A DNA stretch of 64,000 nt from Alphaproteobacteria bacterium (GTDB lineage: Bacteria > Pseudomonadota > Alphaproteobacteria > Rs-D84): NCBI GenBank assembly GCA_009784235.1, contig WRCC01000003.1, positions 72,984-136,983 on the forward strand, written 5' to 3'. Positions 27,000 to 33,331 of the stretch are shown here, piece by piece. How positions within the stretch are numbered: position 1 is the stretch's first letter; the number at the start of each line of letters is the position of its first letter. The translations under genes were made by a program, and so were the position numbers. The notes under the pieces were generated by a model, which saw nothing but the letters and a program-made list of their open reading frames with translations, did no database searches and was not told where the DNA came from.

Positions 27000-27045
27000 A
27001 ATACCGATTGTATCATAATATGTCAGTGTGCTATAATTATTTTTG

Positions 27046-28047
27046 ATGAAACGAAATATCGATAAATTTTTGCTGGGTCTTTTATGGGCGATTGCGCTGT
27101 TACTGGCGGCCAGCTTTTGGTTCGATATCCGTTTCGGGTTTAATATTTTTGCGCGCGCACATTGGCGGTATCTGGCGAATATCCAGACCACTGATGCACC
27201 GGTCAGCACCACATTCTATGTATCTCTGGTAATATTCACATTATTGTTGCCAATTGGGCTTTATTTGATATCACAGCCGTATCGCCGGATTCGCGCACGA
27301 CGCACCGTGCATTCAATAACACCAGATGCAGATTTGAATTATCGTGATTCACATACACCGTTGGCAGTATTGAATGCCCAGCCACCAACACCAATTACAC
27401 CGCCTGCCGCACCAGCGCCAGTTCGCCCACCAGAATTAAAAGTCCCACCGCATTTGCAACACAATATCATTCCGCAGAATCACAACGTGGCGATTGCGAC
27501 ACATGATGAACCACAAACAACTGAAATTCATCGTGACGTTTCCCACATAAAAAAAATAATATCCGACGCTGGATACATTATAAAGAAGTCGCCCAGCATT
27601 GGTGGCACGCGTCCTGACATCTGGGCGGCTGGTTCGGATGAAACCCTGATTGTCGGATTGGTTTGCGACGCGCGCGGCAAAATTGTTGTCAGCGAGGGCG
27701 GCGCATCAATGTGGAAATCGGATACTGATGGTGAATTCGAATCGCCAGTGTGGAAATTGTCGGGCATGGTTAACAAACTGCGTGCAACTTTTGATGAAAC
27801 ATTGGAAGATGATATAAAGGTAACAATTCACGCGTTCGTTGTAATGGATGGCGGCGAAATCGAAAATACCGAAACAGTCCGACCAATCTGGGATGCGTTT
27901 GATATAAGCGTATTCAATTCGCCAAACGCGTTGGCTGAATTTATGAAATCGAATCGTAACCGTGTATTACCAGAATCCGAAGCCGAAGATTTCGAAGCAT
28001 ATTCTGAATACATAGACACAGTTGGTGAATACTTTAACAGCCAGTAA
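27046..28047 (+). CDS. Membrane-anchored protein: two N-terminal TM helices, a Pro-rich linker, and a C-terminal NERD / PD-(D/E)xK-like nuclease-fold domain
   Basis: TM segments FLLGLLWAIALLLAASFWF and FYVSLVIFTLLLPIGLYLI. The linker reads PPTPITPPAAPAPVRPPELKVPP. The C-terminal region IISDAGYIIKKSPSIGGTRPDIWAAGSDETLIVGLVCDARGKIV resembles NERD. The first gene of the cassette has a TTG/ATG start at 27043/27046. Confidence 0.45.
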   Translation: MKRNIDKFLLGLLWAIALLLAASFWFDIRFGFNIFARAHWRYLANIQTTDAPVSTTFYVSLVIFTLLLPIGLYLISQPYRRIRARRTVHSITPDADLNYRDSHTPLAVLNAQPPTPITPPAAPAPVRPPELKVPPHLQHNIIPQNHNVAIATHDEPQTTEIHRDVSHIKKIISDAGYIIKKSPSIGGTRPDIWAAGSDETLIVGLVCDARGKIVVSEGGASMWKSDTDGEFESPVWKLSGMVNKLRATFDETLEDDIKVTIHAFVVMDGGEIENTETVRPIWDAFDISVFNSPNALAEFMKSNRNRVLPESEAEDFEAYSEYIDTVGEYFNSQ

Positions 28048-28052
28048 TAAAA

Positions 28053-28553
28053 ATGACAAAAACAGATGCGGAACGCCGCCTCGCAGATTTGATGATGGAC
28101 GATGTGCCGGTAATGGAAATTCCGGCGCGAATGGCCACGGTTCCATCCGATTGGTTCGAACGGTTTAAAAAAGTCCGGCGCGAATTTATGGAATCATTGT
28201 CTGATTCAATCCAAGAATTATCATTCTTGAATTTATCCCAAGAAACATTTATGCAATTGCTGATGGGACGCGCGATTCCGGAAAATTTGTCGCTTCGTTG
28301 GCGGCGACCACTGGAATACGGCGGCGAATTGGATATAAAAAATATGTTTATGTGTCCACGGTTTCCATACGGTCAAAATATGGACCGGTTTATTGCTGAA
28401 CAATCCGGCAATAATGTTTTATGGATTCCAAATCCGGCAAAAAAAATATATGTTCCGGCGCGATTACTGGGCGGTGGTCCGGGCGGCAATGCGACCAGTG
28501 ACCGATTGGCCGCACTGGCCGCGCAGTTTGCCGCAGACAGGGGAATGATATGA
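28053..28553 (+). CDS. Hypothetical cytoplasmic protein (166 aa), second gene of the cassette
   Basis: It follows the previous stop by 6 nt and overlaps the next gene through an ATGA overlap. A weak, degenerate HNH-like stretch (RRPLEYGGELDIKNMFMCP) is the only hint of function. Confidence 0.4.
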   Translation: MTKTDAERRLADLMMDDVPVMEIPARMATVPSDWFERFKKVRREFMESLSDSIQELSFLNLSQETFMQLLMGRAIPENLSLRWRRPLEYGGELDIKNMFMCPRFPYGQNMDRFIAEQSGNNVLWIPNPAKKIYVPARLLGGGPGGNATSDRLAALAAQFAADRGMI

Positions 28554-28993
28554 CACGCGAAGAATTCATTTCCGAATTAAAAAATCGCGGCGCGATTTTG
28601 ATGCCGACTGTATCAGACCGTGCGATTGAACTGGTTCAAAATGGATTACAGACAATGCGTGCGGCGATGATGTCGCTGGGACTGATTGACATTTATAAAA
28701 CCATCGGTGGTGGGATGATATTGGGCGATGCGAATATTTTCGGGCCGGAAAAAATTGACCGCGTATCCGCGAATTATGAATTGCCTGATATTGTGCAGAT
28801 TAATCGCGATGTGGCGAATATCGGGGCGCTGCGCGGCAAAACCATCATCGGCCGCAACCAAATGTTTTGGTTTGCATTTGATGCATTTGGAAATTTTTAT
28901 ATGCTGGATATTTTGAATTTTCGTATTCTTCGTAAATATGAAAATGACCCGTATCGCGCGATAATTGATTGTTTGGCGGTTGGTAAAATTTAA
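28550..28993 (+). CDS. SUKH / SMI1-KNR4-like putative immunity protein (147 aa)
   Basis: IGGGMILGDANIFGPEKI ... MFWFAFDAFGNFYMLDI resembles the SUKH core (...NGG... / ...FA.D..GN.Y..D...). The start has an ATGA overlap with the preceding gene. Confidence 0.4.
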   Translation: MTREEFISELKNRGAILMPTVSDRAIELVQNGLQTMRAAMMSLGLIDIYKTIGGGMILGDANIFGPEKIDRVSANYELPDIVQINRDVANIGALRGKTIIGRNQMFWFAFDAFGNFYMLDILNFRILRKYENDPYRAIIDCLAVGKI

Positions 28994-29200
28994 ATGAAAA
29001 AAATATCAATCACAATTTCCGGACACAGAACATCTCTGACACTTGAATCCGAATTCATTGATGCGCTACGTCAAATTGCCGCATCACAGAAAAAATCCAT
29101 TGCCGGATTGGTCCAAGAAATTGATGCAAATCGCGCCCGTACGACTAATCTTTCTTCGGCCGTCCGAATCTATATACTGCGATACTTAACAATAAAATAA
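28994..29200 (+). CDS. Ribbon-helix-helix (RHH_4-type) small DNA-binding protein
   Basis: KKISITISGHRTSLTLESEFIDALRQIAASQKKSIAGLVQEID fits the RHH_4 pattern (S.T..GH.TSL.LE..FW.AL..IA). Its ATG immediately follows the previous stop. The 3' end overlaps the convergent ybeY-lnt gene by ~56 bp. Confidence 0.55.
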   Translation: MKKISITISGHRTSLTLESEFIDALRQIAASQKKSIAGLVQEIDANRARTTNLSSAVRIYILRYLTIK

Positions 29201-31082
29201 TCGCCATCATCCAATTGCGGCCAATGATGCGATATGGCGTGATGCGCGATGCACCGACGGTGCCGTCCAACGTGCCCGCAACACCAATTGGCAAACTGGA
29301 TATGATTGTACCATCTGCGGCGACAAATGCGCTGATACCCGAATAATTCGCGCGAATAACGGGCACCCCAGATTCAATTGCATGCCGACGCGTCATATCC
29401 AAGTGCTGATACGGACCGGGCGTCCGACCAAACCAGGTATCGTTTGTAATATTTATAATCATATTCGGCCGGGCGCCACGCGGCACCAACGAATCTGAAA
29501 AAATAATTTCATAACAAATTGCCGGTGAAAATGTAAAATCATTTATATTGATAACTTCCGGTCCATCGCCCCGTGACATTTCGCCGGGTGTTGGAACCAG
29601 TCCGCCCAGCGGGCCATATTCGCCAAACGGAACCAAATGCGATTTATGATATATATGATTAATTGTACCGGTCGCGTCTGCGACAATCATGGAATTGTAA
29701 AACTGTGCATCGCGAATGTTTCGCGATTCTGGAACACGCACAGTATTAACGCCCGCAATAACAGTCGCATTCAATTCGCGCGCTGGTGCAAAATCAACCA
29801 AAACATTTCCATCCATATCAAACGGTATCAAAATCGGATACGCTGTTTCCGGCCAGATTATTATATCTGGATTTCCATCGCCCGTTCGACTCAATTCCAC
29901 CAACTGCCTAACAGCTTCGTCGACTGCCTCGCGATTGATTTTAAATGATTGGCCCGCCGCCGGTTGAATAATTCTGATGATTGGCGATTCAGGTGCTGGT
30001 AATTTATTAATTGCATGAATATTATAATGACCATATCCGATACCGATAATTAGCAATGGAACAAAAAGCGCAAACGACCATTTGTATTTTTTTGGATTCG
30101 TGCATGCTGCAATTAATCCAATAATTATAAACGTTAATCCCAATGCGCCCCACAGAGCCATGCTGTTTGATAGTGCCGGCCATGGCATTGTGATATTCGC
30201 AATCGGATTCCATGGAAACCCAGTCAAAAGCCATTCGCGCAACCATAAAACGAAAGTCCATGCCGCTGCGAATATAATCGGCCGGTACCAATTATTCACA
30301 CCCGTCCACTTGGTCAATAAAAACGGCAATGCAAAAACTATTCCACCAAACAACGCGATTCCAATAACGCCCGGCGCGGTCCAAATTGCAAACTGCGCCG
30401 CCAATTCCGGCACAACATATATAGAATTCAAAACCCACCAGAAATTTGCCACAGCGTACCCGGCGCCAAATGCAAAAGGCAATAAATATGATTTTTTCCG
30501 CGTGGAAATAATCGCATATGCACCACCGATTCCAATCAGCGTCGCCGGCCACAAATAAAACGGTGCGAACCCAAGTGATGCGATGACACCGCATAAAAAT
30601 GTCAATACTGGCAAATAATATTTACCACGAATTTCGGTTTTATACGGGTCCCCTATTCCCAATTTCTTTAAAATCTTTGATTCCAACGATTCCATTTTAT
30701 CTGCATCCGAATCATTTATATGGTCGTGCCCCAGCAAATGCAAAACACCGTGAACAACCATATGCGACGCATGCGCAATAAAATCATTTGGCAATTCACG
30801 CATAACTGTATCAAACGAAATAAATATATCGCCCAGCAATTCCGAATCGCCGGTTTCAAACGACAAGACATTTGTCGGCGCATCTTTCCCGCGATATTTT
30901 TTATTTAATTCTTGTATTTCAGAATCATTGGTCAATATAATGGAAACTTCCCCGTCGCCATTCGCGCCTGTGGCACGAATCGCGGTATCCACGATTTTAT
31001 CAAAATCGATTTTATGTTTTTCCCATCGCGGGTCGTTAATTGTGATGAAAACTTTTATGGACATGCTGAAATCATAAATCAT
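29145..31082 (-). CDS. ybeY-lnt: Single ORF encoding an N-terminal YbeY endoribonuclease domain fused in frame to apolipoprotein N-acyltransferase (Lnt)
   Basis: The first ~155 aa carry the YbeY zinc motif HGVLHLLGHDH and end ...LGIGDPYKTEIRGKY. Lnt TM1 follows with no stop codon (YLPVLTFLCGVIASLGFAPFYLW...). The C-terminus is the Lnt nitrilase-type domain (WPETAYP, ICYE, NDTWFG). Confidence 0.85.
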   Translation of the reverse strand: MIYDFSMSIKVFITINDPRWEKHKIDFDKIVDTAIRATGANGDGEVSIILTNDSEIQELNKKYRGKDAPTNVLSFETGDSELLGDIFISFDTVMRELPNDFIAHASHMVVHGVLHLLGHDHINDSDADKMESLESKILKKLGIGDPYKTEIRGKYYLPVLTFLCGVIASLGFAPFYLWPATLIGIGGAYAIISTRKKSYLLPFAFGAGYAVANFWWVLNSIYVVPELAAQFAIWTAPGVIGIALFGGIVFALPFLLTKWTGVNNWYRPIIFAAAWTFVLWLREWLLTGFPWNPIANITMPWPALSNSMALWGALGLTFIIIGLIAACTNPKKYKWSFALFVPLLIIGIGYGHYNIHAINKLPAPESPIIRIIQPAAGQSFKINREAVDEAVRQLVELSRTGDGNPDIIIWPETAYPILIPFDMDGNVLVDFAPARELNATVIAGVNTVRVPESRNIRDAQFYNSMIVADATGTINHIYHKSHLVPFGEYGPLGGLVPTPGEMSRGDGPEVININDFTFSPAICYEIIFSDSLVPRGARPNMIINITNDTWFGRTPGPYQHLDMTRRHAIESGVPVIRANYSGISAFVAADGTIISSLPIGVAGTLDGTVGASRITPYRIIGRNWMMAIILLLSIAVYRFGRPKKD

Positions 31083-31093
31083 AAATCATAAAT
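31073..31093. repeat. Heptanucleotide microsatellite (CATAAAT)x3, i.e. (ATTTATG)x3 on the coding strand, spanning the ybeY start codon and the ftsK-ybeY junction
   Basis: atcataaatcataaatcataaatcagc. Each unit contains an ATG on the minus strand. Confidence 0.8.
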
Positions 31094-31099
31094 CAGCAA

Positions 31100-33331
31100 T
31101 TATAAAATGTGACGCTTGTTATTCGCATCTGGGCCGCTGACAATCCCCTCTGCCTCCATTCGTTCGATAAAGGTTGCGGCTTTGTTATATCCGATGCCCA
31201 GGCGACGCTGGATGTATGAAATCGTCGGTTTGCGGTCGCGGGTTACATATTCAACTGCTTGACGATATGCATCGCCGTCTTTTTCGGATTTAGAACGCGG
31301 CATTCCTGGGATTGCTTCGTAAGCAGATGCATCGCCGCCGTATCCGGATGACGATTCTTCGGCGTCGCCGATGCCATCCACGTATTCTGGTTCCGCCTGG
31401 GCACGGATGAAATCCGCAACGCGTTTCATTTCCTTGCCTTCTATCCATGCGCTGTGAATGCGCACCGGTACGCGGCCAGCTTCACTGAACAGCATGTCGC
31501 CATTGGCCAATAATTGTTCCGCGCCCTTTTCGCCCAGCGTCGTCATGGAATCGATATTCGAACGCGCTTGGAATGAAATTCGCGTTGGAAAGTTGGCTTT
31601 GATAACACCGGTGATAACGGACGTGTCCGGACGCTGGGTCGCCATCGCCAGATGTATGCCGGCGGCGCGTGCTTTCTGTGCCAATCGCTGCACGCACGCT
31701 TCAACTTCTTTGCGTGCAACGGACATCAAATCGGCAACTTCGTCAATAATTACCACCAGATACGGCATGTGTTCGAATTCTATTTCTTGTGTTTCGAATT
31801 CCAGCGCGCCTGTCTCTGGGTCGGTTCCAACCGCGACTTGTTTTGTAATTTTTTTGCCCGATGCCGCAACTTCGTTAAAGCCTTCGATATTTTGTGCACC
31901 GGCATCTTTTAATTTTTTATACCGTTCTTCCATTTCACGCACACACCATTTCAAAGTATTGACCGCGGCATTCGCGTCCGTAACAACCGGCGTAATCAAA
32001 TGCGGAATGTCTTTCCAGATTGTAAAATCGACACCCTTTGGATCAACCATAATTAATTTGCACTCATCCGGACGGAAATGATACAGCACCGACATTATAA
32101 TAGATTGCACAAATACAGATTTACCAGAACCCGTGCGGCCGGCAATCAGTACGTGCGGCATTTTCGCCAAATCATAATACATCGGGTCGCCGGCAATATT
32201 TACGCCCAGTGCCAACGGTATGTTCAAGCGCGAATGGATAAAATCATCAGTATCGACAAGACCGCGGAACCGAACAATTTGTCGGCCGCCCAAATTCACC
32301 ATTTCAACGCCAATATAATTACTGCGCGGAATATGGGCAATGCGAATATTTTCAGTCGCCATCGCGCGCGTCATATCTTTGACTGTGTCCGCGATTTTTG
32401 CAATTCGCATTCCGGCATCCGGTTCGAATTTATATAATGTAACAATCGGTCCGGGTTCAATGCCCATGACTTTGCCATATACGCCATAATCTTGGAAATG
32501 TGTTTCCAGCATGGCGGCCGTACGTTTAAGGTCTGCGGTCACGGCATGCTTTGAAAACTTTGCTTGCTCTACCAATTCGGGTGATGGCAATTCATAATCA
32601 TCGTGGTTGGTGGTTTGTGCCGGTGGCTGGTGGCTGGTGATTTTTTTTGCGGGCACTTTTTTAACCGCGCACGTTTTCTTTTCTTTTTCTTCTTCATCTT
32701 CTTCGATTTCTTCTGTGTCATCTTCATCCGAAATTTTTTCAACTTTGATTAAATGCAGTACGGAACCAATCCAGCGTGCGGCTGAAATTATTCCGCGATA
32801 AACGGTCATAACATTCGCCCATTTTATATGCAGCAATATTCCAGACATCAATAAAAACATACCGATAAATAAAATGCCAAGCATCATCGCAATGGAACCG
32901 CCGACCAAGCCTGACAAATCACTATGAATAATTGTACCGACCAGGCCGCCGGATGACCATGCGGGAATTACCAGGCCAAGGCCCGCCGCACCAAATACAG
33001 TCGCAATAAACGCACGCATTGCGTCATATTCCGGTGTTTCATTTTCCCAATTTAATAAAATCACGGCACCCAGTCGGGTTATATAAAGCAGAACGAACAA
33101 CAATGGAATCCATCCAATACCATTAATTGCAAAAGATAAAATCACACCGATTAATGATTGTCGGCCGAAACTGCTGGCCACGCTGGCGCCATTCAGCCAG
33201 GGGTCAAATCGAAGCAACGCGATAATAAAAACAACACCGATTAAAATTATTCCCGCGCCAATAATACGCAAAGTCAAATTCTTTAACGCATTTGAAATTG
33301 ATTCGGGCAAAAATCGGGTTTGCTTTGGCAT
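31100..33331 (-). CDS. ftsK: DNA translocase FtsK
   Basis: 743 aa; N-terminal TM domain, an acidic linker, an FtsK/SpoIIIE motor (GRTGSGKSV) and a C-terminal gamma domain. Confidence 0.95.
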   Translation of the reverse strand: MPKQTRFLPESISNALKNLTLRIIGAGIILIGVVFIIALLRFDPWLNGASVASSFGRQSLIGVILSFAINGIGWIPLLFVLLYITRLGAVILLNWENETPEYDAMRAFIATVFGAAGLGLVIPAWSSGGLVGTIIHSDLSGLVGGSIAMMLGILFIGMFLLMSGILLHIKWANVMTVYRGIISAARWIGSVLHLIKVEKISDEDDTEEIEEDEEEKEKKTCAVKKVPAKKITSHQPPAQTTNHDDYELPSPELVEQAKFSKHAVTADLKRTAAMLETHFQDYGVYGKVMGIEPGPIVTLYKFEPDAGMRIAKIADTVKDMTRAMATENIRIAHIPRSNYIGVEMVNLGGRQIVRFRGLVDTDDFIHSRLNIPLALGVNIAGDPMYYDLAKMPHVLIAGRTGSGKSVFVQSIIMSVLYHFRPDECKLIMVDPKGVDFTIWKDIPHLITPVVTDANAAVNTLKWCVREMEERYKKLKDAGAQNIEGFNEVAASGKKITKQVAVGTDPETGALEFETQEIEFEHMPYLVVIIDEVADLMSVARKEVEACVQRLAQKARAAGIHLAMATQRPDTSVITGVIKANFPTRISFQARSNIDSMTTLGEKGAEQLLANGDMLFSEAGRVPVRIHSAWIEGKEMKRVADFIRAQAEPEYVDGIGDAEESSSGYGGDASAYEAIPGMPRSKSEKDGDAYRQAVEYVTRDRKPTISYIQRRLGIGYNKAATFIERMEAEGIVSGPDANNKRHIL

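Follow-up and report, generated by a model that had tools for sequence, protein, structure and literature searches.

The DNA analysed here, hereafter the window, is a stretch of 64,000 nucleotides (64 kb) from an Alphaproteobacteria bacterium (assembly GCA_009784235.1, contig WRCC01000003.1, positions 72,984 to 136,983 of the forward strand), and carries on its minus strand a gene in which ybeY and lnt are joined in a single reading frame. YbeY is a zinc-dependent endoribonuclease involved in the maturation of the 3' end of the 16S rRNA and in ribosome quality control, and Lnt attaches the third acyl chain to lipoproteins at the periplasmic face of the membrane. The list of open reading frames (ORFs) contains one unbroken frame of 645 codons at 29145..31082 (-), exactly as described in an earlier note made from the letters of this stretch, and it bears out the statement of that note that no stop codon separates the YbeY and Lnt parts. 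The true start is probably the ATG at 31064, corresponding to Met7, since the N-termini of the homologues align there with the pattern M-x-x-(K/R)-V-F and NCBI annotates a protein of 639 amino acids (MCL2538617.1), which is 100% identical to the window protein. With this start, the ybeY::lnt fusion gene would extend over 29145..31064 (-) with the stop codon TAG at 29145..29147, while the alternative upstream ATG at 31082 (-) would yield 645 amino acids.

The region of the start codon also contains a 7-bp tandem repeat at 31069..31106 (ATGATTT on the minus strand, 5.4 copies), which extends across the ftsK stop codon and the more upstream ATG of the fused frame and gives several ATGs in differing frames just 5' of the likely start at 31064. 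Phase variation via this repeat was considered and set aside, as no evidence for it was found and the copy number was the same in four assemblies.

The YbeY endoribonuclease module is encoded by 30642..31064 (-), from Met7 to the residues ...GDPY, and is predicted to be cytoplasmic. It matched the Pfam profile YbeY (PF02130) over residues 25-141 with an E-value of 8e-32 and 110.3 bits (cutoff 25), covering positions 9-129 of the 129 positions in the profile, and scored 118.8 bits against the NCBIfam equivalog TIGR00043 for YbeY, for which the cutoff is 45. Residues 38-153 of the 155 residues in the E. coli enzyme (1xm5) align to residues 37-144 of the fusion protein in the 639-amino-acid numbering. 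The zinc-binding motif HGVLHLLGHDH, which has the form H-x3-H-x5-H, was read from the sequence at 30720..30752 (-). The three histidines of the zinc site, H105, H109 and H115 (639-amino-acid numbering), were invariant across 40 fused homologues, and so was R58, the conserved arginine of the YRGKD..TNVLSF segment. We also modelled the fusion protein with AlphaFold2 from a 40-sequence alignment and searched the Protein Data Bank (PDB) for similar folds using Foldseek. The YbeY fold in the model gave template modelling (TM) scores of 0.71-0.72 to 1xm5 and 0.78 to 7y7o from S. aureus.

The Lnt module occupies 29148..30617 (-) and comprises the membrane domain LNT_N at 30120..30590 and the periplasmic nitrilase-type domain CN_hydrolase at 29229..29873, as delimited by Pfam. 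The match to LNT_N (PF20154) covers residues 165-321 (E = 1.5e-20, 74.4 bits, cutoff 27.1) and that to CN_hydrolase (PF00795) residues 404-618 (E = 1.6e-26, 93.6 bits, cutoff 23.2), while the NCBIfam equivalog TIGR00546 for lnt gave 243 bits versus a cutoff of 132.9. Residues 15-495 of E. coli Lnt align to residues 153-624 of the fusion protein (639-amino-acid numbering). The E. coli enzyme has a catalytic triad of E267, K335 and C387 and depends on the additional essential residues W237, E343, Y388 and E389 (PMC3850990). The triad aligns to E406, K474 and C517 of the fusion protein, the codons of which lie within 29514..29849 (-), with Glu at 29847..29849, Lys at 29643..29645 and Cys at 29514..29516. 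These three residues were invariant in 40 homologues, and the same was true for W285, E482, Y518 and E519, which align to the four additional essential residues. The membrane domain of Lnt characteristically has eight helices, and the AlphaFold2 model has long helices over this region as well as a C-terminal helix, and Foldseek aligned it to the Lnt structures 5vrg and 5n6h (E. coli, P. aeruginosa) with a target TM score of about 0.8 over about 500 columns. Two strong, full-length and independent domain matches within one open frame of 1.9 kb are far beyond chance. Neither YbeY nor Lnt is truncated in the fusion, since the alignments to the solved structures of both enzymes are near-complete.

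Reading through the junction, one passes from the zinc motif into the normal C-terminal helix of YbeY with its final residues ...GDPY, then into a linker of 8 residues and finally into the first transmembrane helix of Lnt (TM1), as can be seen in the protein sequence across this region, GDPYKTEIRGKYYLPV. The linker, KTEIRGKY at 30618..30641 (-), is short, positively charged and not conserved. The earlier note had placed TM1 directly after the zinc motif, which has to be corrected because the YbeY helix and the linker intervene. Together, YbeY and the linker take the place of the cytoplasmic tail of about 14 residues in a normal Lnt. The AlphaFold2 model had a mean predicted local distance difference test (pLDDT) score of 85.9 and a predicted TM score of 0.75, with values below 50 only in the linker (144-146), which has the lowest of all, and in one loop. 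No solved structure holding both YbeY and Lnt was found in the Foldseek search against the PDB.

The crystal structure of Lnt shows both termini on the cytoplasmic side (PMC5500888), and residue 15 of E. coli Lnt aligns to residue 153 of the fusion protein, in agreement with the claim of the earlier note that an N-terminal YbeY is topologically feasible. Moreover, the 14 residues ahead of TM1 have a net positive charge in 101 of 121 family members. Given the cytoplasmic N-terminus in the crystal structure and the positive stretch before TM1, YbeY would be located at the cytoplasmic face of the membrane and the active site of Lnt at the periplasmic face.

The window originates from a metagenome-type assembly, and adjacent ybeY and lnt genes that share a frame and are parted by a single stop codon exist elsewhere (locus L008, see below), as would be needed if the loss of a stop codon or a frameshift during sequencing or assembly had joined two ordinary neighbouring genes. 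Against such an artefact, five contigs that belong to different sample records, drawn from sources such as Logan, ENA and JGI, encode the same product of 645 amino acids, and the three of these five contigs that were compared had 0 nucleotide mismatches to the window. The stop codon or frameshift at the junction that the earlier note had named as evidence against the fusion was thus seen in none of the five contigs. An exact look-up of the 639-amino-acid NCBI form returned nothing on record, whereas the 645-amino-acid form was found.

The same architecture was found in diverged proteins. When about 5.8 billion protein clusters were searched, the 120 best matches, with 46-61% identity, all carried PF02130, PF20154 and PF00795, such that the comparison of the ybeY-lnt arrangement in relatives, proposed in the earlier note, gave 120 fused clusters out of 120. 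The fused family thereby comprises at least 120 clusters at 90% identity, which is a lower bound. A single ORF matching both the YbeY and the Lnt profiles was also present at seven loci from GTDB species-representative genomes (L001-L007). These are from the rumen, the caecum and other metagenome-assembled genomes (MAGs) labelled Alphaproteobacteria, proteobacterium or Rickettsiales, plus one Candidatus Enterousia sp., a genus of Alphaproteobacteria incertae sedis. With identical ORFs on contigs from different samples and the same architecture down to 46% identity and in seven species representatives, an artefact is effectively refuted and retains next to no probability. At 50% identity, there were about eight full-length fused representative clusters out of 1.84 billion, and on account of this low number the YbeY-Lnt fusion is a narrow lineage feature. 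NCBI names the fused proteins only 'apolipoprotein N-acyltransferase' (records P0001, P0005, P0020, P0056, P0122, P0136 and P0137). Our literature search, which left most subscription journals outside, found papers on the E. coli operon only and no description of a YbeY-Lnt fusion, which is apparently undescribed so far.

We compared the sequence conservation of the different segments using 119 fused homologues. The mean identity to the window protein was 58% in the YbeY part, and 53% and 54% in the membrane and nitrilase domains of Lnt, respectively, showing that both domains are intact and under purifying selection. The linker had an identity of 7%, and the distance from DPY to GFAP in TM1 was mostly 19-57 residues with more than 30 different values, all of them in frame. 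A frame that is kept through dozens of independent insertions and deletions without any stop codon is what would be expected of a real fusion, not of overlapping genes.

A cysteine-rich linker motif (C-x-D/S-...-C-C-P-G) was observed in 33 of 115 fused homologues (among P0072-P0120 and at L002, L003, L004 and L006), and is absent from the window protein. The linker regions with this motif are located at 6001-6600 in L002 and at 6001-6650 in L003, the latter of which has a metallothionein-like run, CNCGCGGKCNCVDCKCKNCSCCNCPG. The motif may represent a metal-binding insert.

The earlier note had left two options, a genuine bifunctional protein or internal initiation of lnt at a TTG codon. In the latter case, two products would be made from one frame, with ribosomes starting within the junction and producing free Lnt besides or instead of the fusion protein, and the sequence 5' of the internal start would amount to an overlapping ybeY gene that lacks a stop codon of its own. 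Candidates for such an internal start are limited to two in-frame TTG codons, at 30612..30614 and 30603..30605 (-), right where TM1 begins; the note had counted only one, and was right that no Shine-Dalgarno-like sequence is found upstream. A product initiated at one of these codons would be viable to judge from E. coli Lnt, which has only about 14 residues before TM1. In addition, the organism often initiates without a Shine-Dalgarno sequence, as a strong one was seen for no more than 17 of the 50 long ORFs examined in the window. On the other hand, at the 8 fused loci (the window and L001-L007), none of the in-frame ATG, GTG or TTG codons in the stretch that leads from YbeY to TM1 is preceded by a Shine-Dalgarno sequence, and there was no promoter-like site near 30600..30650. 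An internal promoter at the junction was rejected, since the promoter scan gave 6 sites versus 7.8 expected.

Because of the low use of Shine-Dalgarno sequences in the window, their absence from the junction is only weak evidence against internal initiation, and the lack of a conserved start codon seems to be the stronger argument. The homologues have no conserved Met at the junction, and the positions aligned with the TTG codons are not kept as Leu, Met or Val, such that no codon capable of serving as a start is conserved there. A conserved separate start of lnt in relatives, the other observation that the note had set against the fusion, was found neither in the homologues nor in L001-L007. 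A stop codon for ybeY would be cost-free if lnt had its own start, yet the more than 120 diverged homologues, with their more than 30 linker lengths, all lack one. Of the two options in the note, the genuine fusion is therefore the one favoured, while internal initiation at TTG finds no support in the sequence and appears quite improbable.

As an observation on initiation in general, in several window ORFs, ftsK among them, a TATAAT-like box lies just a few nucleotides 5' of the ATG (starts 33331, 27046, 36375, 46639, 41123 and others), which suggests that leaderless mRNAs or mRNAs with very short leaders may occur in this organism.

Taken together, these data indicate that the window very probably contains a genuine fusion gene that is maintained by evolution, with one frame giving rise to one polypeptide that includes a complete YbeY and a complete Lnt. 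Internal initiation, cleavage of the linker, co-option of YbeY and an artefact share among them only a minor part of the probability. We infer that the product stays in one piece and that both activities are retained. The cytoplasmic YbeY would then be tethered to the inner membrane via TM1 of Lnt by a short, flexible and positively charged linker, and would represent a membrane-tethered ribonuclease made 1:1 with Lnt. Each domain would keep its own chemistry, and no direct coupling is expected because the active sites are predicted to be located on opposite sides of the inner membrane. The fusion would be tolerated because the N-terminus of Lnt and the C-terminus of YbeY are free ends that both lie in the cytoplasm. 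Neighbouring operon genes are often found fused, and both YbeY and Lnt are well-known families. Gene compaction may have produced the fusion as an accident that is tolerated, or there may be a real advantage in having YbeY at the membrane. That the tethering is functional, with the nuclease acting at the inner membrane in this clade, possibly as the only YbeY of the cell, is a doubtful proposal.

The full chain could also be translated and then cut in the linker, in which case soluble YbeY would be released and the fusion would serve only for co-expression. The linker is unstructured in the model (pLDDT below 50 at 144-146), variable and exposed, and such linkers are accessible to proteases; furthermore, the known partners of YbeY in other bacteria are soluble ribosome-associated factors, which also counts in favour of a released enzyme. 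We consider this unlikely, given that the linker shows no conserved cleavage motif, with 7% identity and a length of only 8 residues in the window protein, and that no dedicated protease is evident nearby.

Another explanation is co-option: the YbeY-like domain would no longer be the housekeeping ribonuclease but serve Lnt as a regulatory or metal-sensing module in the cytoplasm, and the ribosomal task would fall to a free ybeY gene elsewhere in the genome. Some of the homologues have the cysteine-rich linker (C..CCPG) that could bind metal. A free ybeY gene beyond the searched stretches would fit this reading. However, no second ybeY gene turned up in the search, which covered the 64-kb window and 6 kb on either side at L001-L007, all catalytic and zinc-binding residues are invariant, and YbeY is slightly more conserved than Lnt, as would be expected for an essential enzyme, which makes co-option highly improbable.

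The evolutionary origin of the fusion gene can be considered in view of the gene order at related loci. Most of the recovered Alphaproteobacteria have the order ybeY-corC-lnt (e.g. L014, L017, L045, L053, L060 and L061). The earlier note had remarked on the missing corC (ybeX) gene, and this holds for the whole stretch: a CorC profile derived from 15 ORFs that occupy the position between ybeY and lnt at other loci identified no homologue between the domains or elsewhere in the 64-kb window, nor in the flanks of L001-L008, L021 and L027. Likewise, ybeZ is missing from the locus, and ftsK is instead located upstream of the fusion gene. At three loci from gut-type MAGs (L008, L021 and L027), corC has been lost between ybeY and lnt and the two genes are still separate. 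In L008, the sequence reads ...NPYQE-TAA-aga-ATG with lnt in the same frame as ybeY, and a single substitution would fuse the genes. In L027, ybeY and lnt overlap in TAATG with a GAGGGGG stretch ahead of it, and in L021 they are separated by a 49-nt spacer. These arrangements are plausible precursor states, and the fusion most likely originated in two steps: an ancestral ybeY-corC-lnt cluster would have lost corC, such that ybeY abutted lnt, after which the loss of the ybeY stop codon would have created the single fused frame. This order of the steps is likewise deduced from the present-day arrangements.

We inferred a neighbour-joining tree from the Lnt domains, which has no support values and is a rough guide only. 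Nearly all fused sequences formed one clade, while the distant fused sequence P0136 (L086) was placed elsewhere and the fused sequence P0137 (L087), the gene of which is located directly downstream of a miaB-like gene, was placed near the root. The indications are that the fusion arose at least once and maybe two or three times, and that it was maybe undone at least once.

Several observations weigh against a fusion gene maintained as one functional unit. L008, L021 and L027 are not immediate sisters of the fused clade in the tree, and hence illustrate a route but are not proof of it. Relatives with Lnt only (P0129, P0130, P0133, P0135 and P0139; 38-44% identity) nest near the fused sequences, with a small Lnt-only subclade (P0129 and others) among them, and the gene upstream of lnt in the P0129 contig is not ybeY. 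The fusion is apparently not obligatory and may be undone or bypassed. The infrequent use of Shine-Dalgarno sequences described above belongs here as well, and the product of about 72 kDa is deduced from the gene of an uncultured organism.

Some features of the compared loci are of separate interest. The locus L008 (CAVBCV010000004.1) is titled 'Lachnospiraceae bacterium' and its ybeY/lnt pair is about 33% identical to the alphaproteobacterial fusion; since Lnt is not expected in Firmicutes, the record is likely mis-binned or mislabelled. At L006 8014..8304, a 97-amino-acid ORF right after the fused gene is a fragment of Lnt with 67% identity to the window Lnt over 58 amino acids, and may stem from a partial duplication or from a peculiarity of the assembly. 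In the nearest relatives with Lnt only (L081 5195..7080 and L082 5106..6991), the stand-alone lnt gene is followed after about 2 kb by a Cas9 gene (HNH_4, Cas9_RuvC; 990 amino acids) that is cut off where the locus ends. Apparent PhoH-YbeY fusions in L010, L019 and L040 were dismissed, as these long stop-to-stop frames hold only YbeY according to Pfam and merely have open frames upstream.

The fusion gene is located in an ordinary chromosome context, with dnaN, ppa, a gene for a SPOR-domain protein, tatA and ftsK as neighbours. Four small genes on the plus strand (27043..29200) are convergent to it and syntenic with it in L001-L004 and L006. One of these encodes an RHH_4 ribbon-helix-helix protein (28994..29200, +) and overlaps the 3' end of the fusion ORF by 56 nt, while the other three encode proteins without a Pfam match (28550..28993, 28053..28553 and 27043..28047, all +).

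YbeY is conserved throughout bacteria, but how exactly it acts is a matter of continuing debate (bioRxiv 10.1101/2023.03.20.533420). The fusion would provide a natural lineage in which YbeY works, or is at least tolerated, when a tether that may count as few as 8 residues fixes it to the membrane. It constrains models of how YbeY gains access to the 30S subunit, and could help to explain the adjacent positions of ybeY and lnt in a large number of Proteobacteria. If the tethering is functional, the maturation and quality control of the small subunit would be physically tied to the biogenesis of the envelope, and the fusion would offer a 'Rosetta-stone' explanation for the puzzling and very widespread linkage of ybeZ, ybeY, corC and lnt. 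The fusion also represents an annotation trap, since the NCBI product name covers only the Lnt half, and surveys based on names would score genomes of the fused clade as being without YbeY. Finally, it would be a clean example of gene fusion through the loss of a stop codon in a tightly packed operon, for which plausible intermediates are still visible in other gut Alphaproteobacteria.

In comparison with the stand-alone YbeY enzymes from E. coli (1xm5), H. influenzae (1xax) and S. aureus (7y7o), the YbeY module of the fusion has the same fold, the same H-x3-H-x5-H site and the same ...DPY C-terminus. However, the stand-alone enzymes are soluble proteins of about 155 amino acids, whereas in the fusion only 8 residues separate the end of YbeY from a polytopic membrane protein. 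Membrane-anchored ribonucleases are known from other systems, including RNase Y of Bacillus and RNase E, which is attached via an amphipathic helix. As proposed for the fusion, these enzymes process RNA at the cytoplasmic face of the membrane, showing that such a localisation is compatible with RNA metabolism, but their anchors are dedicated helices and not another enzyme, and their sequences are unrelated to YbeY.

The nearest precedent for a fusion that involves Lnt is Rv2051c (Ppm1) of M. tuberculosis, a two-domain functional Lnt-Ppm synthase, for which the two domains are encoded by separate genes in M. smegmatis (PMC3850990). Like YbeY-Lnt, it is a natural fusion of Lnt with the enzyme of a neighbouring gene. 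The partner in Rv2051c is C-terminal to Lnt and belongs to a related envelope pathway, in contrast to YbeY, which is N-terminal, acts in RNA processing and has no known link to lipoproteins. The nearest known system overall is the ybeZ-ybeY-ybeX(corC)-lnt operon of E. coli and other Proteobacteria, the linkage of which has been described in E. coli (bioRxiv 10.1101/2023.03.20.533420). It contains the same two enzymes in the same order and orientation as the fusion, but in the E. coli type of operon the genes are separate with corC in between, whereas the locus in the window contains neither corC nor ybeZ and the frames of ybeY and lnt are joined.

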